NCBI GenBank assembly: GCA_963727775.1
Contig: CAVSHB010000002.1
Coordinates: forward strand, 384,001-448,000
Length of the DNA stretch: 64,000 bases
Reading direction: 5' to 3'
Origin: an uncultured Nitrospiraceae bacterium
GTDB taxonomy: Bacteria; Nitrospirota; Thermodesulfovibrionia; Thermodesulfovibrionales; SM23-35
The notes under the pieces were generated by a model, which saw nothing but the letters and a program-made list of their open reading frames with translations, made no database searches and was not told where the DNA came from. Position 1 is the stretch's first letter, and every line of letters starts with the position of its first letter. Positions 19,857-32,580 of this stretch are shown piece after piece. The position numbers and the translations under genes are program-made.

Positions 19857-21299
19857 TCATTTACTTACAAAGGTGCTCGTATCCCAGTGTTTCCATTTCA
19901 GGTACTCGTTTATTGCCTTAGCCGCCTTTCTCCCTGCGCCCATCGCAAGGATAACAGTCGCGGAGCCCGTGAGTATATCACCGCCTGCAAAGACGCCCTT
20001 CTTCGAGGTCATGCCGGTCTCTTCATCGGCCACGATATATCCCCTTTTATTCAGTAATAAATCGGGCACTGTTTTCGTCAGCAATGGGTTTGACCTTGTG
20101 CCGATGGCCGGTATTGCAACGTCTATCCCGATCCGGAATTCGCTGCCGTTAACAGGGACCGGCTTTCTCCTGCCCGATTGATCAGGTTCTCCCAACTCCA
20201 TCTTTTCGCATTCAACCTCGCAGACATTCCCCTTGCCGTCATCTATAAACCGCAGAGGGTTTGTCAGCAGCATGAATTCAATGCCTTCTTCATGCGCGTG
20301 ATGGATCTCCGCTTTTCGCGCAGGCATCTCGGCCTGTGAGCGCCGGTAGACGAGATACACCTTCTCCGCGCCGAGCCGCAATGCAACTCTCGCCGCATCC
20401 ATCGCAACATTGCCGCCACCGAAGACCGCAACGTTTTTGCCTTTTTTTATCGGCGTATCATACTCCGGGAAAAGATACGCCTTCATAAGGTTGGCGCGGG
20501 TGAGGAATTCATTTGCGGAATAAATGCCGTTAAGGTTCTCTCCGGGTATACCCATGAACATAGGCAGCCCAGCTCCGGTGGCGATGAAGCATGCGTCATA
20601 TCCATTGTCATTGAATAGTTCATCGACGGTGTGGAGTTTCCCGATTACCGAGTTCAGCTTCAACTCAACCCCGAGTTTCTCTATGTACTCAACTTCTTTT
20701 TCCACTATTACTTTCGGCAGCCTGAATTCAGGTATGCCGTAAATCAATACCCCTCCGGGTTTGTGCAATGCTTCGAATAATGTAACTTGATGTCCATCCC
20801 GTATCAGATCAGCGGCGCAGGCCAACCCGCCGGGACCCGAACCGATTATGGCGACCTTCCTGCCGGTCTGTTTCGGTCTCCCCGGGATCTGCACATCCCC
20901 CTGCTCCCTCTCATAGTCTGCGACAAAACGTTCAAGATTCCCTATCGCGACCGGTTCTCCTTTTTTGCCGAGGATACAGAGAGATTCACACTGTATCTCC
21001 TGTGGGCATACCCTGCCGCAGACAGAAGGGAATGCGTTGTCTTCTTTTATCTTCCAGGCAGCTTCTATAAATTTTCCTTCTTTCACTAATTTTATAAATG
21101 AAGGGATATCCACCGATACAGGACATCCGCTTCTGCATGAAGGTTTTAAACAGCTGAGACATCTCGACGCCTCTTCGACGGCCTCGTCGCGGGTATATCC
21201 ATAGGGGACTTCCATGAAATTCCTCGCCCTTGCCAACGGCTCCTGTTCCCTCATCTTTATTCTGTTTTTGGGTTGTTTGGCGGACTTTTTTTCTTCCAT
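19857..21299 (-). CDS. nfnB: NfnB / GltD-SudA-like large subunit of NADH-dependent reduced ferredoxin:NADP+ oxidoreductase
   Basis: RCLSC..PSCRSGCP, CGRVCPQE.QCE..C, GSGPGG, GGGNVAMD, FAGGD; paired with nfnA, no gltB present. Confidence 0.85.
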   Translation of the reverse strand: MEEKKSAKQPKNRIKMREQEPLARARNFMEVPYGYTRDEAVEEASRCLSCLKPSCRSGCPVSVDIPSFIKLVKEGKFIEAAWKIKEDNAFPSVCGRVCPQEIQCESLCILGKKGEPVAIGNLERFVADYEREQGDVQIPGRPKQTGRKVAIIGSGPGGLACAADLIRDGHQVTLFEALHKPGGVLIYGIPEFRLPKVIVEKEVEYIEKLGVELKLNSVIGKLHTVDELFNDNGYDACFIATGAGLPMFMGIPGENLNGIYSANEFLTRANLMKAYLFPEYDTPIKKGKNVAVFGGGNVAMDAARVALRLGAEKVYLVYRRSQAEMPARKAEIHHAHEEGIEFMLLTNPLRFIDDGKGNVCEVECEKMELGEPDQSGRRKPVPVNGSEFRIGIDVAIPAIGTRSNPLLTKTVPDLLLNKRGYIVADEETGMTSKKGVFAGGDILTGSATVILAMGAGRKAAKAINEYLKWKHWDTSTFVSK

Positions 21300-22135
21300 T
21301 ATTTGGCCCCCGTCTTTTCCTTGTACCGATCGAAGGCTATTTTTTCCTCCTCGATATACATCCTCTGTCGCGACATGAGCAAATTAAAATCAACTTTGTG
21401 CCCGTCAAATTCGGGGCCGTCAACACACGCAAACTTTGTCTCTCCGCCTACTTCCACCCTGCATGCGCCGCACATGCCTGTCGCATCCACCATGATTGAA
21501 TTCAGGCTGACGACGGTTTTTGCACTGTGCTTCTCTGTTGTCACGCACACAAATTTCATCATGATGGCGGGACCTATCGCGTAAACCAGTCCGATGCCTT
21601 TTTCTTCTTTGAGAAGTTCATCCAGCGGAACGGTCACTACCGCCTTCCTGCCGTAAGAGCCGTCATCCGTTACAATGATCAGTTCATCCGACACCTTGCG
21701 CATCTTGTCTTCCCAGAAGATGAGGTCTTTCGTCCTCGCGCCGATGATCGAATAAACCGTATTGCCTGCTTCTTTGAGAGCCCTCGCAATCGGATATGTG
21801 GGAGCTATCCCGACACCGCCGCCGACACAGATTACCTTCCCGAAATTATCTATGTGAGAGGGCATTCCGAGCGGCCCGATAACATCTAATATATGATCGC
21901 CTTCATTTAATGTCCCCAGGTGATGGGTCGTCTTTCCCATTTTCTGAAAAACTGTCGAAATCGTGCCTTTGTCCCTGTCGAAATCGGCGATTGTCAAAGG
22001 TATCCTTTCGCCCTGCTCATGGATCCTCAAAGTGAAAAAATTACCCGCCTTTGCTTTTTTTGCGATATCCCTTGCTTCGATTTCAAATAATGTGACTAAA
22101 TCCGATAACTCCTGTTTCCTTAAGATTTTAAACAT
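21299..22135 (-). CDS. nfnA: NfnA / SudB small subunit
   Basis: GERIPLTIAD, GPLG, GGGVG, MVDATGMCGACRV...ACVDGPEFD. Confidence 0.88.
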   Translation of the reverse strand: MFKILRKQELSDLVTLFEIEARDIAKKAKAGNFFTLRIHEQGERIPLTIADFDRDKGTISTVFQKMGKTTHHLGTLNEGDHILDVIGPLGMPSHIDNFGKVICVGGGVGIAPTYPIARALKEAGNTVYSIIGARTKDLIFWEDKMRKVSDELIIVTDDGSYGRKAVVTVPLDELLKEEKGIGLVYAIGPAIMMKFVCVTTEKHSAKTVVSLNSIMVDATGMCGACRVEVGGETKFACVDGPEFDGHKVDFNLLMSRQRMYIEEEKIAFDRYKEKTGAK

Positions 22136-22247
22136 CAAAAGCTCCTTCCTTTTTATAGATAATGGACGGTATCACATATTATATACACTTTAAAGCCGGA
22201 CTATTTTTTTAAAAAACAAAAAACTTTTCCGTAAACCCATTTTTTAC

Positions 22248-22277
22248 TTGACAAGAGTCTTCGCTTTTCAGTATAAC
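22248..22277 (+). promoter_or_regulatory. sigma70-type promoter of the nuo operon
   Basis: TTGACA-N18-TATAAC, 10 nt before the nuoA ATG. Confidence 0.6.
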
Positions 22278-22287
22278 ATTTCTGCTT

Positions 22288-22659
22288 ATGCCAGGAACGT
22301 ATTTACCATTAGACTATTTGCCGGTTTTTATTTTCATCGTTATCGCGATGGCCTTCGGATTCGGCGCTCTTCTTCTCGGCATGATCTTCAGGCCGAAAAA
22401 ACCATACTATGAAAAGCTCATGCCCTATGAATCCGGCATCACCCCGACGGGAGAACCCCGCTACAAATTTTCGATAAGGTTTTATATCATCGCCATGCTG
22501 TTTGTCGTATTCGATGTGGAAGCAATTTTTCTTTATCCCTGGGCAATAGTATTCGACAAAATCGGAATGTATGCATTTGTAGAAATGGTGCTTTTTATCG
22601 CAGTACTGCTGGTCGGATATCTTTATGCCTGGAAGAAAGAGGCCTTTGAATGGGATTGA
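22288..22659 (+). CDS. nuoA: complex I subunit A
   Basis: [27 protein letters not shown]. Confidence 0.95.
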
Positions 22660-22675
22660 AAATGAGAGGTGGAAA

Positions 22676-23194
22676 ATGATCGATACATCAGCCATGGGAC
22701 TTATTCAGGTAGAACCGGACGTAAAAATATTGCCCCCGAATATCATCATCACCTCCTTTGACAAGATTATTAATTGGGGAAGGTTGTCTTCAATGTGGCC
22801 GACCACTTTCGGTCTCGCCTGCTGCGCGATAGAGATGATGGCGGCAGGCGCAGCCCATAATGATTTAGACCGGTTTGGGATCATTTTCAGAGGTTCGCCG
22901 AGACAGGCGGACTGCGTGATTGTAGCAGGTACCGTCACAAAGAAAATGGCCCCCGTAGTCAGAAGGGTCTATGACCAGATCCCGGAACCGCGGTATGTGA
23001 TAGCGATGGGAAGCTGCGCGTGCACGGGAGGGGTTTTCAAAACTTACAGTACTGTCCAGGGATGTGATTCTTTCCTTCCCGTTGACGTATATGTACCCGG
23101 TTGTCCCCCGAGGCCTGAGACATTGCTTGAGGGGTTGATAATGCTTCAGGAAAAGATCAGAAAAGAAAAGGCAAGGTGGAGTCCATGGCGGTAA
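22676..23194 (+). CDS. nuoB: complex I subunit B
   Basis: [28 protein letters not shown]. Confidence 0.95.
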
Positions 23195-23766
23195 CGGAAG
23201 TAAGAATTTCGATATTTCCCGCAGGGCTGAACCCGAAAGATATAGCAGAAAAGGTGAAGGAAAAATTTCCGGAACAGGTGGTCGATGTCGCCGAATTCAG
23301 AGATCAGGTCTCTATTATCGTTAAAAAGGACCAGATAGTCCCGATCCTGAAATATCTCCACGATGACCCCCTTTTGAGCCTGGACCATCTCCAGGACCTT
23401 ACCGCTGTTGATTATCTCAAGAAAAAAGATGTCAGGTTCGAGGTTGTCTATAACCTTTATTCAATGAGATATCGCCATCAAATACGCATCAGAGCGCAAG
23501 TGGCGGAAAACGATCCAAAAATTGGCTCCGTGGTTCCTATTTGGGCCGGCGCCGATTGGCACGAAAGAGAATGTTACGACATGTTCGGCATCGTGTTTAA
23601 CGGACATCCCGATCTGAGGAGAATCCTGCTGCCCGAAGACTGGGAAGGACATCCCTTGAGAAAAGATTATCCTTTGGCGGGACCTGAACTTGAAAAAGAT
23701 TGGCCGGGGTTTGTTGATGTGCTCAAGAGATCAAAAGAATTGAGAGAGTTTGAGTGGGATGGATAA
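23176..23766 (+). CDS. nuoC: complex I subunit C
   Basis: [29 protein letters not shown]. Confidence 0.95.
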
Positions 23767-23767
23767 G

Positions 23768-25234
23768 ATGATCCAGAAAGAAGCAGAGAAGATATTCGAG
23801 ACAAGAGAACTTAATGTAAACATGGGGCCGCAGCACCCTGCAACACATGGTGTTTTGAGGCTTGTTCTTGATATAGACGGCGAGACAATCGTCAAGGTAA
23901 CTCCCCATATCGGATATCTCCACCGCGGCATCGAAAAGCTCGGGGAGAGCTTGAGTTATTTTCAGGCCCTTCCGTTGACGGACAGAATGGATTATGTGTC
24001 CGCGATGTCGAATAACATCGGCTATTGCGTTGCCGTTGAAAAACTGTTTGGTATAGAGGCCCCCGAGAGGGCAAAGTTCATAAGGACGATAGTAGGAGAG
24101 ATGTCGAGGATATCGAACCATCTCCTTTGGCTTGCGACCCATGCCCTTGATATCGGCGCCATGACCGTATTTATCTACTGCTTCAGGGAGAGAGAATGGA
24201 TCCTCGACCTGTACGAGATGATCTGCGGTGCGAGGCTTACCGTCACCTACCCGAGGGTAGGCGGCGTGAGGAACGATGTCCCGCAGGAATTTCTTGACAG
24301 CCTATGGAAATTTACGGACGAGTTCCCGTCAAGAATTCTGGAATACGAGACACTGATCGATCAGAACAGGATATGGCTACAGAGGACCGTGGGTATCGGG
24401 GTGATTTCAGCGGAAGAAGCGGTGAACTGGGGAATGACGGGACCGACGCTAAGAGGGTCCGGTGTTTCCTATGACATAAGAAAGCACATGCCCTATGACG
24501 CGTATGACAAGGTTGATTTTGAGGTGCCGATCGGTACCACGGGTGATACATACGACAGATACCGGTGCAGGATGCTCGAGATGAGGCAGTCGAACAGCAT
24601 ATTAAGGCAGTGCATCGAAAAGCTGCCGACGGGTCCGGTCATGGCCGATGCCCCGAAATTCACCCTTCAACCGAAAGATATGATGATGCCGATCACGCAT
24701 CCTACGAAAGAGTTGGCATATGTGATCGAGGAAAAGGTCTGCAAGGGGTGCGGCATGTGTATGAGAGCGTGTCCCGCAAAGGCGATCTTCGGAGAGAAGA
24801 AGAAACCCCATGAGATAAAGCAGGATCTCTGCCTGCAGTGCGGAAACTGTTTTGTGACCTGCAAGTTCAAGGCATTAAAGCTTATCCCCGGCGGCAAGGG
24901 CATGAGCGAAGAGCAGCTCAAGGAATTGGCCGCAGGTCCGATGCCGGAGGAGATCACGAAAGCCGCAGAATATATGGTTAAGCACTTCGAATTCGTGAAG
25001 AAAGGACCGAAAGTCCCGGAAGGGGAACTGTATGTGGCAACCGAGGTCCCCAAGGGCGAACTCGGGTTTTATTTTGTGAGTGACGGTTCGGGAAAACCTT
25101 TCAGGATGAGGTTAAGAGCACCGTCGTTTGTGCATGCCGGCGTTCTGCCGAGACTGTGCAAGGGGCATCTGGTTGCGGACGTAATCGCAAACATCGGTAC
25201 CATCGATATCGTGCTTGGAGAGTGTGACAGATAA
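23768..25234 (+). CDS. nuoD: complex I subunit D with an inserted 2[4Fe-4S] ferredoxin domain
   Basis: [35 protein letters not shown]; insert [12 protein letters not shown]...[11 protein letters not shown]. Confidence 0.93.
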
Positions 25235-26298
25235 TGAATACACTTACTAATATCATATCTCCCTCGACTCTTGATGTTTTAATCAAATTTGGAATTAACG
25301 TATTAATCATTATTCTTAAGATAGTAATTGTTCTTGCGGTCGGGTTGCTCCACGTGGCTTACGCAACATATTTCGAACGTAAGGTCATCGGCCATATGCA
25401 GGTGAGGCTCGGACCTATGAGAGTCGGATGGCACGGTCTTCTTCAGCCTTTTGCGGACGGTATCAAGTTGTTTTTCAAGGAAGACATAATCCCTGCGCAG
25501 GCCGATAAAGCCGTATTCTACATTGCTCCGATCATTTTTATGGCAGCGGCAATGGTGAATCTTTCTTTTATCCCATTCGCTTCTAATTTTGCAGTTGCCC
25601 CAAACGTAAATATAGGCCTCTTGATGGTATTCGCCTTTGCCGGTATGGGCGTCTATGGCATATTCATATCCGGCTGGGCATCGAATTCCAAGTACTCTTT
25701 CCTCGGCGGGCTCAGGTCATCTGCTCAGGTGATAAGTTATGAGATCGCAATGGGACTGAGCCTCGTCGGTGTTATGATCATGTCCGGGTCCCTGAACCTT
25801 ACGGAGATCGTAAAGGCCCAGGAGGCATCCGTCTTCGGAATGTACGCGATACCTCAGATCGCCGCTTTCCTCGTGTTTACTATTGCGGCCTTAGCAGAGA
25901 CGAACAGGACGCCTTTTGACATGCCCGAGGCGGAGAGCGAGCTTGTTGCCGGCTACTTTACGGAGTACAGCAGTTTCAGGTTTGCACTTTTCTTCCTCGG
26001 TGAATATATCGCAATGATTATTATGGCTTCTCTGGCAACGGTATGTTTCCTGGGAGGTTGGACGTTGCCGTGGTATATCACATCGGTACTTCCCTTCTTA
26101 AAGCTGGTACCCGGTATTGTATGGTTCCTCATGAAGGTCTATGCCTTCATATTCTTCTATTACTGGATTAGGGCAACGGTGCCGAGATACAGATACGACC
26201 AGGTGATGAAGATCGGCTGGAAAGTACTAATACCGGTCGCATTGGCGAATATTGTGGTAACGGCCCTAGTGAAAATTTTGATGACAAAGGGAGTCTAA
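25234..26298 (+). CDS. nuoH: complex I subunit H
   Basis: ERKVIGHMQ.R.GP, AETNRTPFDMPEAESEL, PRYRYDQ. Confidence 0.95.
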   Translation: MNTLTNIISPSTLDVLIKFGINVLIIILKIVIVLAVGLLHVAYATYFERKVIGHMQVRLGPMRVGWHGLLQPFADGIKLFFKEDIIPAQADKAVFYIAPIIFMAAAMVNLSFIPFASNFAVAPNVNIGLLMVFAFAGMGVYGIFISGWASNSKYSFLGGLRSSAQVISYEIAMGLSLVGVMIMSGSLNLTEIVKAQEASVFGMYAIPQIAAFLVFTIAALAETNRTPFDMPEAESELVAGYFTEYSSFRFALFFLGEYIAMIIMASLATVCFLGGWTLPWYITSVLPFLKLVPGIVWFLMKVYAFIFFYYWIRATVPRYRYDQVMKIGWKVLIPVALANIVVTALVKILMTKGV

Positions 26299-26299
26299 G

Positions 26300-26830
26300 G
26301 TGACTGTCAGGGAAATTATCAAAAGGTTTACTTTCATAGAAATATTTCAGGGTATGGCCCTTACCTTGAAAATGATGTTCACTCACGCAGTTACTGTACA
26401 GTATCCCAAGGAAAGAAGGACCATAGCTCCCGGTTTCAGAGGGCAGCATGCACTTGCAAAGAATAAGGAAGGGAAAGCAAAATGCACCGGCTGTGGTCTC
26501 TGTGCGACGATTTGTCCGTCGCAATGCATTAAGGTCACAAGAGCCGAAGGAAGGGTGGCAAATTACGAATTGGACATATTGAGATGCATCTACTGCGGCT
26601 TCTGCGTAGAGGCTTGTCCGTATGGGGCGATCTCGCTGACCGAAAGCTACGAATACTCCGTGTATAAAAGAGAGGATCTGCTTCTGACAAAGGATAAGCT
26701 ATTAGCCAATTGGGATGAATTTATGCCTGGAAGTAAGGGGGATGTGTATTTCAGGAAATTCTGGCGACCAATGTCTGAGGATTTCGGTACTCCTCCGGGC
26801 CAGGCGGTCTTTAGAGGGAAAAAGGAATGA
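26300..26830 (+). CDS. nuoI: complex I subunit I
   Basis: TVQYP, CTGCGLCATICP, CIYCGFCVEACP. Confidence 0.95.
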   Translation: MTVREIIKRFTFIEIFQGMALTLKMMFTHAVTVQYPKERRTIAPGFRGQHALAKNKEGKAKCTGCGLCATICPSQCIKVTRAEGRVANYELDILRCIYCGFCVEACPYGAISLTESYEYSVYKREDLLLTKDKLLANWDEFMPGSKGDVYFRKFWRPMSEDFGTPPGQAVFRGKKE

Positions 26831-27339
26831 TTCAGGAATTATCCTTCGGATATTTTGCATTTGCGATAGTGGTGCTTTCCATTCTCGTTATTACAAGGAG
26901 GAACCCAGTCCACAGCGTGCTCTGGATGCTGCTGCTCTTTTTCCATATCGCGAGCTTGTATCTTTTCCTGAACGCAGAGTTTATGGCTGCGATTCAGGTT
27001 ATTGTATATGCGGGCGGCATACTTGTATTGTTCCTTTTTGTAGTGTTGCTGATTAACCTCAGGGAAGAAGTTGGAATAAGCAATTTTATCAGCGCTGCCC
27101 CGACAGGGTTCACCTTTGCAGTCGGGCTCCTGGTTGTGATTACTATGTCCCTCAAATCATTTGTCGCAGCGCCTCCGGGTATTTATTCGATTGAAATGAT
27201 CAAGAAAGAAACCAATATAAAGGCCTTGGGGAAGTTATTATATACGGATTATCTCTACCCGTTTGAGGTCGCGTCATTGATCCTTCTGGTGGCAATCATA
27301 GGCGCTATAGTCCTTGCAAAAAGGAGGCTTAAGAGTTAA
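26827..27339 (+). CDS. nuoJ: complex I subunit J
   Basis: NPVHS, QVIVYAGGI.VLFLF, PFEVAS. Confidence 0.95.
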   Translation: MIQELSFGYFAFAIVVLSILVITRRNPVHSVLWMLLLFFHIASLYLFLNAEFMAAIQVIVYAGGILVLFLFVVLLINLREEVGISNFISAAPTGFTFAVGLLVVITMSLKSFVAAPPGIYSIEMIKKETNIKALGKLLYTDYLYPFEVASLILLVAIIGAIVLAKRRLKS

Positions 27340-27341
27340 GC

Positions 27342-27644
27342 ATGGTCCCATTAAGCTGGTATATGACGCTCAGTACGGCAGTATTCGCGATCGGAGTCTT
27401 CGGATTCCTTTCGAGGAAAAATATTATTATCATGTTTATGTCCATAGAGCTGATGCTCAACGCTGTCAATATCAACCTGATAGCTCTTAGCCATTACCTC
27501 CAGGACCTGAGGGGACAGATACTGGCTCTCTTCGTTATCGCTGTGGCTGCCTCTGAAGCTGCGATAGGCCTTGCGATAGTCATAGCCTTATTCAGAAACA
27601 AGCCCACCGCTCATGTGGACGAGGTGAAGGAGATGCAGGGATGA
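27342..27644 (+). CDS. nuoK: complex I subunit K
   Basis: SIELMLNA, VAASEAAIGL. Confidence 0.95.
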   Translation: MVPLSWYMTLSTAVFAIGVFGFLSRKNIIIMFMSIELMLNAVNINLIALSHYLQDLRGQILALFVIAVAASEAAIGLAIVIALFRNKPTAHVDEVKEMQG

Positions 27645-27654
27645 GGAGCAATTT

Positions 27655-29610
27655 ATGAAATTATATCTTTTAATACCGTTTCTGCCGCTCACAGCATTTA
27701 TAATTAATATTCTGCTCGGCAAAGAGGTCTTGAGAGAAAAAGCTCACTGGCCGTCCATCCTTGCGGTGGTAGGTTCATGGCTGGTGACGATATTTTCCGT
27801 CCTACCGCAGGTCATGGCGGGAAAGATCATCAACGAAGACCTCTACTCGTGGATAGCCTCAGGCACTTTCAATGTCGCCGTGGGATTTCTTATCGATCCG
27901 CTCACAGCGGTAATGCTGGTGGTTGTCACTACGTGCGCATCATTAATACATATATATGCCGTCGGCTATATGCACGGAGATACCGGCTATTACAGGTTCT
28001 TTGCGTATATGAGCCTCTTTACCTTCTGCATGCTGATGCTCGTCATGGGAAACAACTTCCTCCAGCTCTATTTCGGATGGGAGGGTGTGGGCTTATGCTC
28101 TTATTTCCTTATAGGCTATTATTTTAATAAGAAGTCAGCCGCTGACGCGGGTAAAAAGGCCTTTATCGTAAACAGGTTCGGGGACTTCGGATTCGGGCTT
28201 GGTGTATTTATGATATTCCTTACCTTTGGGACCCTGCATTATACGGATGTATTCGGCAGCGTAGCAGGCATTGTCGGCAAGACGGTAAATTTCCTGGGAT
28301 GGAACGTCGACCTTCCGACCCTTATAGCACTCCTTCTTTTCTGCGGCGCCGTCGGAAAGTCCGCGCAGCTTCCGCTGCATGTATGGCTTCCCGATGCTAT
28401 GGAAGGGCCCACGCCTGTCAGCGCCTTAATCCATGCGGCAACGATGGTCACAGCTGGTGTATTTCTCGTTGCCAGGTGCAACCCTATATTCAACCTGTCC
28501 GCAGTTGCAATGAATACGGTCGCTATTGTCGGCGCGCTTACCATGTTCTTTGCCGCGTCGATTGCCATTACGCAGAATGACATCAAGAGGATTATCGCTT
28601 ACTCTACATGCAGTCATTTAGGTTATATGTTCGTCGCATGCGGTGTGGGCGCCTATTCTGCGGGCATTTTCCATCTTTATACACACGCATTCTTTAAGGC
28701 CCTGCTCTTCCTTGCGGCGGGTAGTGTTATTCATTCCGTTCATACGAACAATATCCAGGAGATGGGCGGCTTAAAAAAATATATGCCGATAACCTATGCG
28801 GTATTTGTAATCGCAGGCCTGAGCGCTGGAGGATTTCCGGGCTTGTCGGGGTTCTTCAGTAAGGACGAGATTATATGGTCCGCATATGCTTCAGGTTCTT
28901 CTGTAGGCAAATTCGTCTGGGTGCTCGCTCTCGCGGGCGCGTTTTTCACGCCTCTATATACATTCAGACTTATATTCGTAACATTTCATGGGAAAAATCG
29001 CGGCGTGCATCACGAAGAGCACGGTCACGATGCTCATGGATCGCATGGAGAACACCACATTCATGAGTCTCCAAAAGTCATGACGGTCCCGTTAATGCTC
29101 CTTGGGGTCGGCGCGGTTGCCGCGGGTTGGTTCGGGATCCCGCCGATACTTGGCGGCGGCTCGCATTTCGCCGAGTTTCTCAAGCCGGTGTTGGGAGAGC
29201 CTGAGTTCCACGCGTCACACGCGGAAGAATGGGGTGTAATGGCATTATCAACGGCCATCGCGCTTTCTGGACTCGGTGTTGCAGCGTTCCTCTATCTGAG
29301 GAAAACCGATCTCCCGGAAAGGATAGTGAAAACCTTCAGTGGATTGCACAAGATCCTTTACAACAAATATTATGTCGACGAGTTTTACAGTTACACAATC
29401 ATAAAGCCGACAATGTGGATAGCCAAAAATATTCTTGTTGCGATTACCGACGGAAAGATGATAGAGGGAGTTGTTAACGGTTTACCAAGCGCAATCGGCA
29501 GGTTCAGCGGAAAATTGCGGAGAGTTCAGACAGGCCTGACGCATCACTACGGGATCATAATGGCAGCCGGCGCATTCTTTATAATTGCTCTGGCATTATT
29601 ACTTAGATAG
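27655..29610 (+). CDS. nuoL: complex I subunit L
   Basis: GWEGVG, NRFGD, KSAQLPLHVWLPDAMEGPTPVSALIHAATM, HAFFKA. Confidence 0.95.
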   Translation: MKLYLLIPFLPLTAFIINILLGKEVLREKAHWPSILAVVGSWLVTIFSVLPQVMAGKIINEDLYSWIASGTFNVAVGFLIDPLTAVMLVVVTTCASLIHIYAVGYMHGDTGYYRFFAYMSLFTFCMLMLVMGNNFLQLYFGWEGVGLCSYFLIGYYFNKKSAADAGKKAFIVNRFGDFGFGLGVFMIFLTFGTLHYTDVFGSVAGIVGKTVNFLGWNVDLPTLIALLLFCGAVGKSAQLPLHVWLPDAMEGPTPVSALIHAATMVTAGVFLVARCNPIFNLSAVAMNTVAIVGALTMFFAASIAITQNDIKRIIAYSTCSHLGYMFVACGVGAYSAGIFHLYTHAFFKALLFLAAGSVIHSVHTNNIQEMGGLKKYMPITYAVFVIAGLSAGGFPGLSGFFSKDEIIWSAYASGSSVGKFVWVLALAGAFFTPLYTFRLIFVTFHGKNRGVHHEEHGHDAHGSHGEHHIHESPKVMTVPLMLLGVGAVAAGWFGIPPILGGGSHFAEFLKPVLGEPEFHASHAEEWGVMALSTAIALSGLGVAAFLYLRKTDLPERIVKTFSGLHKILYNKYYVDEFYSYTIIKPTMWIAKNILVAITDGKMIEGVVNGLPSAIGRFSGKLRRVQTGLTHHYGIIMAAGAFFIIALALLLR

Positions 29611-29617
29611 GAGAAAA

Positions 29618-31156
29618 ATGGAACAGGTAATCATGAATCAATTAAGCTTCCCAATCCTGAGCACGGTTATATTCCTACCTGTTTTAGGCGCATTGCTCAT
29701 TCTTTTAAACAGAAGATCATGGGAATTGCTTACGAAATGGATTGCCTTAACAACGAGCGTTGCGACATTTCTGCTGTCAGTCCCGCTCTTCACCGATTTT
29801 GACAAGACTACGTATAGGATGCAGTTTGCCGAAAAATTCAGCTGGATTTCGAACTGGAACATTTATTATTTCCTGGGCGTTGACGGTATAAGCGTTTTGT
29901 TTATTCTTTTGTCCACATTGACCGCCATCCTTTGCGTCCTCATATCGTGGAATTCAATAAAGATGAAGGTAAAAGAGTTTTATATCGCGATACTTTTAAC
30001 TACTTCGTTTATGATAGGCGTATTCTGCTCACTCGACTTTTTCCTTTTCTATATTTTCTGGGAGGCCATGCTTATCCCCATGTTCCTCATCATCGGCGTA
30101 TGGGGAGGTCCGAACAGGGTCTATGCGGCAATAAAGTTCTTCCTGTATACCCTGGTCGGCAGCGTGCTCATGCTTGTCGGCATAATCGTGCTTTATCTTT
30201 ACGCCGGGAAGACATTCAATATCCTTGACTTAATGACTAAGACATATCCTTATACGATGCAGCTGTGGCTTTTCTGGGCATTCTTCGCGGCATTTGCCGT
30301 AAAAGTCCCGATGTGGCCCGTGCACACATGGTTGCCTGATGCCCATACGGAAGCCCCTACAGCGGGCAGTGTGATTCTGGCGGCCGTGCTTATTAAGATG
30401 GGGGCGTATGGTTTTCTCAGGTTTGCTCTGCCCTTATGCCCTGAGGCCTCAAAAGCGATGACCCCTGTTATGCTGACACTTTCAGTGATCGGGATAATCT
30501 ATGGCGCTGTAATATGTCTTGCGCAGACAGATCTGAAGAGGCTGATTGCATACAGCTCAGTGAGCCATATGGGTTTTGTGACACTGGGGATATTTGCCCT
30601 GAACATCCAGGGACTCGAAGGCGGGATACTGCAAATGCTGAACCACGGCGTCGTTACCGGAGCGCTCTTCTTGTCCGTCGGGATAGTTTACGACAGAACA
30701 CATACAAGGAAGATCGCTGATTACGGCGGCCTCGCATCGGTCATGCCTATTTATGCCGCGTTCTTTATGGTATTTACCCTTGCGGCGATCGGGTTGCCCG
30801 CAACGAACGGTTTCATCGGTGAATTCCTTATCCTTCTCGGAGGGTTTGCGGCCAGTAAATGGGCGGGAGTGCTCGCATGCACCGGAATAATCATCGGCGC
30901 CGGATACATGCTCTGGCTTTATCAGAGGATATTCTTTATGGAGACGAACCAGAAGATCATCGGTCTGACCGACATGGATATAAGAGAAACGATAACACTC
31001 ATCCCTATGCTTATCCTTGTTTTCTGGATAGGCATTTATCCGAATTCATTCCTCGGTTTCATGCACGCGTCTGTTCAGCATCTCCTGGAAAGAGTTAATT
31101 CGGGCGGAGTACAGGAAGCGAACGCCGCTAAAGCCTTTATGGAGGTTGTCAGATGA
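29618..31156 (+). CDS. nuoM: complex I subunit M
   Basis: GVDGIS, FWE, HTWLPDAHTEAPT, AYSSVSHMG. Confidence 0.95.
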   Translation: MEQVIMNQLSFPILSTVIFLPVLGALLILLNRRSWELLTKWIALTTSVATFLLSVPLFTDFDKTTYRMQFAEKFSWISNWNIYYFLGVDGISVLFILLSTLTAILCVLISWNSIKMKVKEFYIAILLTTSFMIGVFCSLDFFLFYIFWEAMLIPMFLIIGVWGGPNRVYAAIKFFLYTLVGSVLMLVGIIVLYLYAGKTFNILDLMTKTYPYTMQLWLFWAFFAAFAVKVPMWPVHTWLPDAHTEAPTAGSVILAAVLIKMGAYGFLRFALPLCPEASKAMTPVMLTLSVIGIIYGAVICLAQTDLKRLIAYSSVSHMGFVTLGIFALNIQGLEGGILQMLNHGVVTGALFLSVGIVYDRTHTRKIADYGGLASVMPIYAAFFMVFTLAAIGLPATNGFIGEFLILLGGFAASKWAGVLACTGIIIGAGYMLWLYQRIFFMETNQKIIGLTDMDIRETITLIPMLILVFWIGIYPNSFLGFMHASVQHLLERVNSGGVQEANAAKAFMEVVR

Positions 31157-32580
31157 ATTTCCGGCTTCCCGATATCAGCCTTATGATGCCTGAACTTACA
31201 ATGATTGCCCTGGCATTGGTAGTCCTGCTCATTGACCTTTTAATAAAGAAGAAGGAGGTAATAGCATTAATAAGCATGGCGGGAGCAGCCCTTGCATCGT
31301 TGACTCTCTTCGGATCACCGGGAACAACCTTCGGGACCATGTATATTTCGGACGGCTACAGCACATTCTTCAAGCTGATATTCCTTATTAATGTAATACT
31401 GACTGTTTTAATTTCCATTAAGTATATCAATATCGAAAAAGTCAATTACGGAGAATATTACAGTCTCATTCTTTTTTCCACAATCGGCATGATGATAATG
31501 GCGTCCGCGGGTGACCTTATTGTGTTGTATTTAGGGCTTGAGCTTATGGCACTCAGCACCTATGTTCTTGCGGGATTCATCAGGCAGAATATTAAATCGA
31601 ATGAGGCGGCCCTGAAATATTTCCTTCTCGGCGCTTTTTCTTCAGCGTTCCTTTTATACGGCATATCATTAATCTACGGCTTAACAGGCACAACAGATAT
31701 AAAGGCGATAGCATCTTTTATTACGGAAAAAGGTCTTGCCGGCAACTTCTCGCTCCTGCTCTCCGTCATATTTTTTACGGTTGCCTTCGGGTTCAAGATC
31801 GCTGCCGCGCCATTCCACATGTGGACGCCGGACGTATATGAGGGCGCACCTACATCAATAACGGCTTTCATGTCAGTAGGGCCGAAGGCCGCTGGGTTTG
31901 CAGTGCTTGGCCGTGTTTTCATGGTTGCATTCGCATCGGTTAAGCTCGAATGGGCAGCAATACTTATCCCAATTTCAATACTCACAATGGCCATCGGCAA
32001 TATCGTTGCCCTGTCGCAGACGAATATCAAGAGAATGCTCGCGTACTCGTCAATAGCCCATGCCGGCTATGCCCTCCTGGGTGTTATAACCGCAAATAAT
32101 GAAGGGCTTGCGGGTATGATGAATTACCTCATGATCTATGCGTTTATGAATATTGGGGCCTTTGCGGTCATCATCATGCTGAGAAGCGAAGGCTTCAAGG
32201 GTGAAAGCATATCCGACTATGAAGGCCTGTCAAAGACCCATCCGCTGGCCGCGATGCTCATGCTGATATTCATGTTCTCGCTTACGGGAATTCCGCCGAC
32301 AGCAGGTTTTATCGGCAAGTTATATATCTTTATGAGTGCCATCAATGCGGGATACACGTGGCTTGTCGTGGTTGCCGTGATGTTCAGCGCTATTTCCGCA
32401 TACTTCTATCTCAGAATTGTGATTTACATGTACATGAGGGACCCGAAAGAAACAGTTGTGTTGAGCACATCTTTTTCTAATGGAATCGCCCTTGGAATAA
32501 CAGCAGTTGCGGTACTGTTTATCGGCGTCATGCCGTCATTTCTCCTTGACCTTGCCAAGGCTGCAATAAAAGGCTTCTAA
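31153..32580 (+). CDS. nuoN: complex I subunit N
   Basis: EAALKYF, FKIAAAPFHMWTPDVYEGAP, KRMLAYSSIAHAG. Confidence 0.95.
   Translation: MNFRLPDISLMMPELTMIALALVVLLIDLLIKKKEVIALISMAGAALASLTLFGSPGTTFGTMYISDGYSTFFKLIFLINVILTVLISIKYINIEKVNYGEYYSLILFSTIGMMIMASAGDLIVLYLGLELMALSTYVLAGFIRQNIKSNEAALKYFLLGAFSSAFLLYGISLIYGLTGTTDIKAIASFITEKGLAGNFSLLLSVIFFTVAFGFKIAAAPFHMWTPDVYEGAPTSITAFMSVGPKAAGFAVLGRVFMVAFASVKLEWAAILIPISILTMAIGNIVALSQTNIKRMLAYSSIAHAGYALLGVITANNEGLAGMMNYLMIYAFMNIGAFAVIIMLRSEGFKGESISDYEGLSKTHPLAAMLMLIFMFSLTGIPPTAGFIGKLYIFMSAINAGYTWLVVVAVMFSAISAYFYLRIVIYMYMRDPKETVVLSTSFSNGIALGITAVAVLFIGVMPSFLLDLAKAAIKGF

Follow-up and report, generated by a model that had tools for sequence, protein, structure and literature searches.

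The window analyzed here, a 64,000-nucleotide stretch from the genome of an uncultured Nitrospiraceae bacterium, contains a complex I (nuo) operon whose NuoD subunit carries an inserted ferredoxin domain. The operon lies on the forward strand at positions 22288–32580, in the order nuoA-B-C-D-H-I-J-K-L-M-N. It comprises nuoA (22288–22659; PF00507), nuoB (22625–23194; PF01058; true start probably a later ATG) with an intact tandem Cys-Cys motif for the N2 cluster, nuoC (23176–23766; PF00329), nuoD with the inserted domain (23759–25234; assigned by Pfam, alignment, model, and fold matches), nuoH (25234–26298; PF00146), nuoI (26300–26830; Fer4) for clusters N6a and N6b, nuoJ (26827–27339) and nuoK (27342–27644), both assigned by open reading frame, position, and similarity to relatives (no Pfam scan), nuoL (27655–29610; PF00361 and PF00662), nuoM (29585–31156; PF00361), and nuoN (31153–32580; PF00361). 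Open reading frames and Pfam searches of the window revealed no nuoE, nuoF, or nuoG within the operon, and no gene separating nuoD and nuoH, which bears out the EFG-less (headless) nuoA–N operon claimed in a preliminary description of this DNA.

NuoD is encoded by a single open frame, giving 494 amino acids from a TTG at 23750 or 491 from an ATG at 23759; residue numbers below follow the 494-residue frame. Pfam analysis split Complex1_49kDa into two stretches with Fer4 between them at residues 324–375, confirming by domain search the interrupted architecture that had been claimed, and solved 49-kDa chains aligned to NuoD residues ~18–304 and 395–494. When NuoD was globally aligned with three insert-less NuoD sequences of the same family, the insertion appeared as one gap of exactly 90 residues (residues 312–401, window positions 24683–24952), in agreement with the preliminary estimate of an in-frame insert of about 90 residues. 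Secondary structure prediction gave a short helix, followed by a 2[4Fe-4S] ferredoxin fold and an acidic tail helix (24902–24937). The ferredoxin core (24713–24886; net charge +6), of the BfuB/HydB B3/B4 type, contains two CxxCxxCxxxC motifs, one at 24740–24775 (Cys331/334/337/341) and the other at 24830–24862 (Cys361/364/367/371). All eight cysteines were invariant in 69 of 69 aligned sequences (the window protein together with 68 out of the 75 Fer4-bearing NuoD proteins described below), and the loss of cysteines in homologues contemplated at the outset was not seen. The insert carried a net charge of +6 to +8 in all 34 loci listed, and the tail helix has a charge of −1 to −5. Synonymous differences in the ferredoxin core equaled or exceeded non-synonymous ones in six of six pairwise comparisons (e.g. 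14:4, 19:7, 10:8); such comparisons also revealed that the insert evolves faster than the NuoD core.

An AlphaFold2 model of NuoD built from a 148-sequence alignment had a predicted local distance difference test (pLDDT) score of 90.7 and a predicted template modeling (pTM) score of 0.83, with pLDDT 79–89 in the insert; this deeper alignment was used instead of a shallower one, which gave a model of pLDDT 59. The 50 fold matches listed were all 49-kDa subunits, and the 49-kDa core was intact. The quinone-site residues His33, Tyr82, and Asp134, matched by motif and with roles taken from PMC6992706, were invariant in the NuoD alignment. NiFe Cys pairs were absent from NuoD, which has a single C-terminal Cys (C492) and no N-terminal pair; together with low-scoring matches to the large subunits of Mbh and Hyc, this led us to reject a group 4 [NiFe]-hydrogenase (Ech/Hyc/Mbh). 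An assembly chimera was likewise ruled out: the same architecture recurs in 75 of 82 protein matches and at no fewer than 34 genome loci, and within the family it is shared by 43 of 57 genomes. The NuoD insertion is a real feature.

Two side observations concern the first genes of the operon. At window positions 22248–22277, TTGACA, 18 bases, and TATAAC were noted by eye, ending 10 bases upstream of the nuoA ATG; the pair is a possible promoter that would give a nearly leaderless transcript, and a promoter scan under a stricter rule listed no site, this pair included. Of 96 occurrences of the nuoB tandem N2 ligand motif, 25 have an in-frame TGA at the first Cys of the pair (12 from loci with the insert and 13 from loci without it, including some duplicates; e.g. 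L012, L013, L014, L016, L019, and L036), where it is a candidate for selenocysteine; the window nuoB has Cys-Cys.

Distribution of the grafted NuoD

A search with NuoD residues 300–430 retrieved 82 proteins, 75 of them NuoD with Fer4 and seven NuoF/BfuB-type flavoproteins; the taxon-named members of the 75 belong to Nitrospirota or Thermodesulfovibrionales. Among 151 genomes of the class, the NuoD–ferredoxin fusion was present in 10, namely the window genome, eight of eight family members, and G140 from a neighboring family. Extension to the whole family (n = 57) found the insert in 43 genomes, an insert-less NuoD in 10, and no NuoD match in four, and the family-wide presence suggested by the first sample of eight was rejected; the insert had 44 family matches, one of which is a BfuB in G214, leaving 43 carriers. 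The carriers are one family of uncultured anaerobic Nitrospirota, which we take to be, probably, SM23-35 of GTDB. In species-representative genomes, the full insert was present at no fewer than 34 loci, of which 33 carry a Nitrospirota title and one a Nitrospinota title, and nuoD was directly followed by nuoH in 31 of the 34 loci listed, the other three ending before nuoH.

Among the best 150 NuoD representatives from all life, two such motifs occurred only in the carrier family's own sequences and in one Altiarchaeales-type NuoCD. The latter (P0110) has a two-motif ferredoxin-like domain at residues ~97–170, inside the NuoC part of the fused protein, and stands for a cluster of 5, one member of which is named Ca. 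Altiarchaeales NADH dehydrogenase. This insert appears to be an independent Fe-S graft on a Q module, and no further clusters with a NuoC insert of the P0110 type were found. The preliminary description did not recognize the NuoD architecture as a described complex I variant; our literature search, with subscription journals and supplementary figures outside its coverage, likewise found no account of an Fe-S domain in NuoD.

Relation of the insert to the Bfu cassette

By its closest matches, the insert is the C-terminal B3/B4 2[4Fe-4S] ferredoxin domain of a bifurcating BfuB/HydB subunit. A resemblance to the C-terminal ferredoxin domain of the NuoF/HydB type had been proposed, and this held: the nearest non-NuoD sequences are the C-termini of 610–650-aa BfuB proteins encoded in a gene cassette. 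In a Protein Data Bank (PDB) search, the insert core matched the C-terminal domains of 7p5h_B, 9n5u_B, and 8oh5_B; generic polyferredoxins (MvhB, RnfB) slightly outscored HydB/NfnB in that search, and the assignment therefore rests on the BfuB matches, which are 42–68% identical. Only the last ~90 residues of BfuB are found in NuoD, and the flavin mononucleotide (FMN)/NADH core with B1 is absent. In a tree that included the tail helix (77 columns), 34 inserts formed one group (100/97), sister to cassette BfuB (98/86); this helix is common to cassette-type BfuB, and Fdh-type BfuB stops before it.

The cassette consists of genes for a sensor kinase, response regulators, often NfnAB, a receiver-BfuC, a thioredoxin-like protein, BfuB, and a BfuA of ~820 aa, with DRTGG/ATPase/PHP genes. 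Its BfuA carries the N5 motif of the NuoG type and has neither Cys nor Sec as a catalytic residue at the Mo site. With at least 64% identity, this BfuA was found in eight of 10 insert-less family genomes and in none of the 43 carriers, where the closest paralogue reaches 44%. In G090, of the same order, the cassette lies between nuoD and nuoH, replacing nuoEFG. Within the family, three states were seen: the cassette is divergent from nuoABCD-EFG-H (G228, G229), it stands beside a headless insert-less operon (G204, G216, G214), or only nfnAB is divergent from the grafted operon. The orthologue of the ancestral-operon NuoF (65–66% identical to the query) was confined to two insert-less genomes, G228 and G229, apart from a cut copy in G227, and G226 retains nfnA-nfnB-DRTGG-ATPase, which is the cassette minus bfuCBA. 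G214 has two cassette BfuB paralogues, one intact and the other without the GDEGDPG loop of the FMN/NADH site; among five family BfuB tested, the tail of the loop-less protein is the closest to the insert. Deletion of the GDEGDPGAFMDR loop of the FMN/NADH site with B3/B4 intact was seen in cassette BfuB at L160:1191–3047 (G214) and in P0076, P0238, and P0240, and the BfuB of L130 has a similar change.

In the window, two reverse-strand genes encode the NfnAB transhydrogenase: nfnA (21299–22138; small subunit; Pfam DHODB_Fe-S_bind and NAD_binding_1), divergent from nuoA, and nfnB (19857–21299; NfnL/GltD-like large subunit; Pfam Fer4_20 and Pyr_redox_2). Orthologues of nfnB, 76–84% identical, stand first in the Bfu cassette of insert-less relatives, and the window gene would be a remnant of a divergent cassette that in those relatives runs on into bfuCBA. 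The position of nfnA beside nuoA was kept in all eight family genomes first sampled; among the 31 genome loci with sufficient upstream DNA, 19 showed the divergent nfnAB–nuoA arrangement and 12 did not satisfy the adjacency rule. We infer that the order of events ran from cassette to graft, and the grafted complex probably descends from a Bfu-linked complex.

Other origins and related gene arrangements were also considered. An intermediate with a separate ferredoxin gene located after nuoD and before nuoH was rejected, since no such gene was present in the five nuoD–nuoH or nuoD–nuoE gaps read in headless relatives, four of which hold a cNMP-binding-like gene (by eye) and one nothing clear. 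This gene, encoding ~160 aa, lies right after nuoD in four families, before nuoH in L046 and L055 and before nuoE in L043 and L049. Complementation by a BfuB lacking its C-terminus (546–559-aa frames in some carriers) was set aside, these frames being ~55% identical to cassette BfuB and absent from the window genome. A receiver domain fused to a NuoE-like BfuC, accompanied by a sensor kinase and DRTGG/ATPase/PHP genes, occurs at L023:4875–15171 (G090) and in L150, L155, and L163; a cassette of this kind is possibly a phosphorylation-controlled, swappable complex I head. At L003:5654–15942 (G000:C4), the genes after a CO dehydrogenase (CODH) encode BfuC, two nearly identical BfuB proteins, each with CBS domains at its C-terminus, a 205-aa fragment corresponding to the end of BfuB, and a protein resembling NuoG; other carriers have similar CODH–Bfu clusters. 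Three carrier loci have other Bfu-type genes between nuoA and nfnA: L071 and L081 (~1060-aa BfuB–GltD fusion) and L075 (Fdh-type Bfu). On comparison with the insert, these were rejected as candidate donors.

The electron-entry face and its possible function

Just past the insertion site, NuoD of headed complexes has the motif ME-x-LIHxF, which was present in 16 of 17 distinct headed segments, six of 14 headless insert-less segments, and none of 71 insert segments. The conservation pattern, together with the structure of complex I, suggests that this helix docks NuoG; a literature passage naming the NuoD helix that touches NuoG was looked for and not found. Carriers have here a basic patch, K417-K418-G-P-K421 (24998–25012): among the parsed insert segments, all 69 have Lys or Arg at position 417 and 68 of 69 have one of the two at position 421, compared with none of 16 parsed headed segments (two of the 71 insert segments were not parsed for these positions). 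NuoD residues 421–494 align without gaps to residues 321–394 of 6hum_H (NdhH), which pairs K421 with NdhH residue 321, a match by position, with the identity of Lys321 taken from PMC7021789. In NDH-1, ferredoxin contacts NdhH Lys315 and Lys321 and NdhI Lys86, 89, and 91 (Zhang et al., PMC7021789), and lies 9.6 Å from N6a, between the NdhI hairpin and the C-terminal fragment of NdhH (Pan et al., PMC6992706).

The corresponding NuoI hairpin of the window is short and basic, with 11 residues between the two cluster motifs (26531–26563). The same length, with a charge of +2 to +4, was found in 29 of 29 distinct insert operons, compared with 15–17 residues in 31 of 32 others (mean charge −0.4; one distant outlier), and the hairpin was long in the insert-less family members examined. 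In these comparisons the electron-entry face comes out as rebuilt, with B3/B4 placed at the helix that headed complexes conserve, the nuoEFG and bfuCBA neighbors gone, and NuoD and NuoI basic beside N6a. Separately, headless insert-less operons were seen to have the same NuoD segment swapped for Pro-rich, unrelated, or basic loops (L051, L059, L041; L151–L154, from G212 and G213), and some have basic NuoI hairpins; these loops and hairpins appear to be other solutions at the same surface.

Two genomes, G140 and G226, look like lateral acquisitions of the insert package, both being metagenome assemblies in which mis-assembly is possible. In G140, NuoB–NuoI are 83–96% identical to carriers versus 58–77% to its own genus, and NuoJ–NuoN are 85–98% identical to its own genus versus 71–79% to carriers; its placement in NuoD+H and NuoL+M trees agrees with these mosaic identities, and it carries the nuoA–I block without nfnAB. 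The N-terminal NuoD core of G226 is 95–96% identical to insert-less congeners, while its insert is 89% and the following helix 95% identical to another carrier, the helix being just 47% identical to congeners. Both genomes lack nuoEFG and the cassette BfuA (G140 also has no cassette-type BfuB), and both have the short NuoI hairpin.

We consider the operon product likely to be a proton pump of 11 subunits that acts as a ferredoxin:menaquinone oxidoreductase, a judgment that covers two geometries taken together. In the first, an in-line relay that would extend the NuoI wire as the preliminary description proposed, and to which we give just short of an even chance, an acidic reduced ferredoxin supplied by CO dehydrogenase, 2-oxoacid oxidoreductases, or the adjacent NfnAB would dock on the basic insert, and the insert clusters would pass its electrons on through N6a, N6b, and N2 to menaquinone, a flow that would power NuoH/L/M/N. 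The insert would occupy the place of the head beside N6a, with the NuoI hairpin shortened to make room and perhaps gripping the acidic tail helix. In Bfu enzymes, B3/B4 form the low-potential branch, with ferredoxin 12.8 Å from both clusters, and removal of B4 abolishes most bifurcation (PMC12018979); the B3/B4-type domain resembles NdhI (Feng et al., PMC8880783). The window genome also encodes Rnf, CODH/ACS, Fdh- and CODH-linked Bfu complexes, DsrA, MqnC, three POR-family enzymes, and a 61-aa ferredoxin of net charge −9, the last at contig C1:107442–107627.

In the second geometry, the docking site of ferredoxin would be N6a, as it is in NDH-1. The basic NuoI hairpin and NuoD K417/K421 would grip the ferredoxin, the insert would line the other side of the pocket, and the insert clusters would serve as a side store of electrons that aids two-electron delivery to quinone. 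Basic residues have been gained where NdhI and NdhH bind ferredoxin at 9.6 Å from N6a, and the insert, being basic as well, fits an acidic ferredoxin wedged between it and the N6a face equally well; in NfnABC, ferredoxin is wedged beside B3/B4 at 12.8 Å from both clusters (PMC12018979), and the problem of one-electron delivery has been discussed by Pan et al. (PMC6992706). However, the NuoI hairpin is ~5 residues shorter, whereas NdhI has a long one, and three headless insert-less relatives keep a full-length basic hairpin; the shortening looks like space made for the insert beside N6a. Taken by itself, and counted within the likelihood given to the ferredoxin-fed pump, the buffering arrangement seems rather unlikely.

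The frequent presence of nfnAB next to nuoA raises another possibility, that a large partner enzyme (NfnAB, CODH-linked Bfu, or a 2-oxoacid oxidoreductase) docks on the insert and relays electrons through it with no soluble ferredoxin involved. Besides the 19 of 31 loci with divergent nfnAB, other Bfu-type genes take this slot at three loci, and other Thermodesulfovibrionia tie headless nuo to PsrAB or POR genes (PMC5165239). Yet there is no constant partner, adjacency failing at 12 of 31 loci and G140 having no nfnAB, and the presence of nfnAB is accounted for as a remnant of the ancestral cassette; we regard docking of such a partner as improbable.

Published potentials of about −500 mV for ferredoxin, −280 mV for NADH, and −74 mV for menaquinone (PMC9304861) correspond, by our computation, to ~82 kJ per electron pair for ferredoxin, 61 kJ for confurcation, and ~40 kJ for NADH. 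Four protons at an assumed 180 mV amount to 69 kJ, so that the ferredoxin yield suffices, which would explain retention of the change. Operation mainly in reverse, with proton-motive force driving electrons from menaquinol to ferredoxin for the Wood–Ljungdahl pathway and the insert as their exit, would be ~0.43 V uphill, and Rnf, NfnAB, and several Bfu complexes in the genome can reduce ferredoxin. Although B3/B4 passes electrons to ferredoxin in Bfu enzymes (PMC12018979) and the window genome has CODH/ACS, reverse operation is the least probable of the alternatives weighed here.

On contig C4, the window genome has a second complete nuo operon, nuoA–N with E, F, and G, encoding a fused NuoCD (44% identical), NuoE, a 425-aa NuoF, and a 917-aa NuoG, and the notion of a genome without NuoEFG was rejected. 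The preliminary suggestion that no NuoEFG is available thus failed for the window genome and stood for 36 of 43 carriers, in which the grafted NuoD is the sole intact NuoD match (E 1e-40). This second operon (L001:17874–19999, G000:C4) has genes of the oxidative pentose-phosphate pathway before it and Rieske and cytochrome b/c genes after it. Given nuoEFG on contig C4, and several NuoF/BfuB-like paralogues in all well-assembled family genomes, a conventional head might act in trans, provided by the second operon or another Bfu, and the insert would be off-path or structural like N7. Against such a head stand the 36 of 43 carriers with no second intact NuoD operon, the confinement of ancestral-type NuoF to insert-less genomes, and the loss of ME-x-LIHxF from all 71 insert segments, and the invariant cysteines and lateral spread are unlike an idle appendage, making a head in trans quite improbable.

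Several observations weigh against the ferredoxin-fed pump and the history proposed for it. Many insert-less relatives are headless too (10 orthologous loci), and the insert is therefore not required for life without NuoEFG; a CD-fused second operon is present in seven of 43 carriers, the window genome included. The insert and the N6a face are both basic, which disfavors a flat contact of insert on NuoI unless the acidic tail helix bridges them. The preliminary idea of a ferredoxin docking point survives in part: the insert lies in the NuoD segment that forms the NDH-1 pocket with the NuoI hairpin, but near that pocket and not on it, the insertion point being ~20 residues (one helix) upstream of the Lys321 equivalent. 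The changes linked to the insert are mostly of one origin and amount to one to three observations, not independent tests. With the 58-residue core alone, cassette-type and Fdh-type BfuB were not separated as donor (p-AU 0.384), and a NuoD tree without the trait columns did not recover carriers as one clade.

A wider and more tentative reading, to which we lend somewhat less than even weight, is that of a five-cluster ferredoxin-only wire (B3/B4–N6a–N6b–N2), in which a bifurcating head has collapsed into one NuoD domain and the graft spreads between genera by recombination. If so, the graft would be a plug-in that turns an NADH-dependent or bifurcating complex I into a ferredoxin-driven one, with its steps preserved in relatives: an NADH head plus cassette, a headless operon plus cassette, a BfuB without the FMN/NADH loop, and the graft with heads gone. 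It would represent a traceable switch of electron donor, opposite in direction to the ferredoxin-to-NADH path proposed for the origin of complex I, and one that takes a 90-residue graft and few surface changes, testable in a model complex I. A ferredoxin-fed complex would also give anaerobes with Wood–Ljungdahl and dsr genes a further energy-conserving step, between ferredoxin and menaquinone. In this EFG-less complex I, the candidate entry point for electrons is part of a core subunit and hence directly testable. NuoD cores are 82–96% identical across the headed, Bfu-linked, headless, and grafted versions in the family, a series that could reveal which NuoC, NuoD, and NuoI surface changes make complex I take ferredoxin in place of NADH, and whether a larger driving force restores four-proton pumping with menaquinone.

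Comparison with known systems

Canonical 14-subunit complex I has nuoEFG in its operon and ME-x-LIHxF in NuoD, whereas the window operon has neither, and the nuoEFG of the window genome belong to the separate CD-fused operon. The 11-subunit complex I-like enzymes (Moparthi and Hagerhall 2011, PMC3144371) have the same gene set as the window operon and, like it, no NiFe Cys pairs, and the operon belongs with them by sequence. EFG-less operons have been reported in Thermodesulfovibrio sp. N1, with ferredoxin proposed as donor (PMC5165239). The available text on these enzymes describes N-terminal NuoC extensions and no Fe-S domain in NuoD (PMC3144371, PMC5165239), and that of a survey of the phylum makes no mention of the insert (PMC10203281). 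Headless insert-less orthologues in the same order have a NuoD of 396–413 aa.

The B3/B4 domains of HydABC and NfnABC (7P5H, 9N5U; PMC12018979, PMC8880783) match the whole insert core with E 4e-14 and 2e-12 and have the same two-motif Cys pattern. The HydB/NfnB domain is mobile, lies at the end of the chain, and receives electrons from cluster C1; its counterpart in the window protein is anchored on both sides within a loop of NuoD. Nuo-Bfu is a predicted bifurcating complex I reported for Nitrospirae, which are included in BfuB clade 39 (Schut et al. 2022, PMC9304861), and its layout, nuoABCD-bfuCBA-nuoHIJKLMN, is present in G090. Nuo-Bfu and the window complex share the B3/B4 domain, and both would let ferredoxin feed a menaquinone-reducing complex I. 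They differ in that the window operon has no BfuA, BfuC, or FMN/NADH core, and an orthologue of the cassette BfuA is absent from 43 of 43 carriers. With B3/B4 alone inside NuoD, NADH would not be co-oxidized and no bifurcation would occur.

The NDH-1 of cyanobacteria and chloroplasts (6HUM/6KHI family; PMC6992706, PMC7021789) likewise has 11 core subunits and no NuoEFG, and both complexes have basic residues on the NdhI/NuoI hairpin and the C-terminal NdhH/NuoD fragment, a likeness seen here at the level of sequence. NDH-1 has no extra NdhH clusters, a long hairpin, and the accessory subunits NdhL–V, whereas the window complex has the insert clusters and a short hairpin; none of NdhL, M, N, O, S, and V was found in the operon, to which this search was limited, a genome-wide one not being made. 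The acceptor is plastoquinone in NDH-1 and probably menaquinone in the window complex. The window NuoD is nearer to respiratory 49-kDa subunits than to NdhH (bit score ~438 vs 337), NdhH chains ranking well under mitochondrial and proteobacterial 49-kDa chains among its matches, which places it outside the NdhH lineage. The window complex probably works like NDH-1 without belonging to the NDH-1 lineage.

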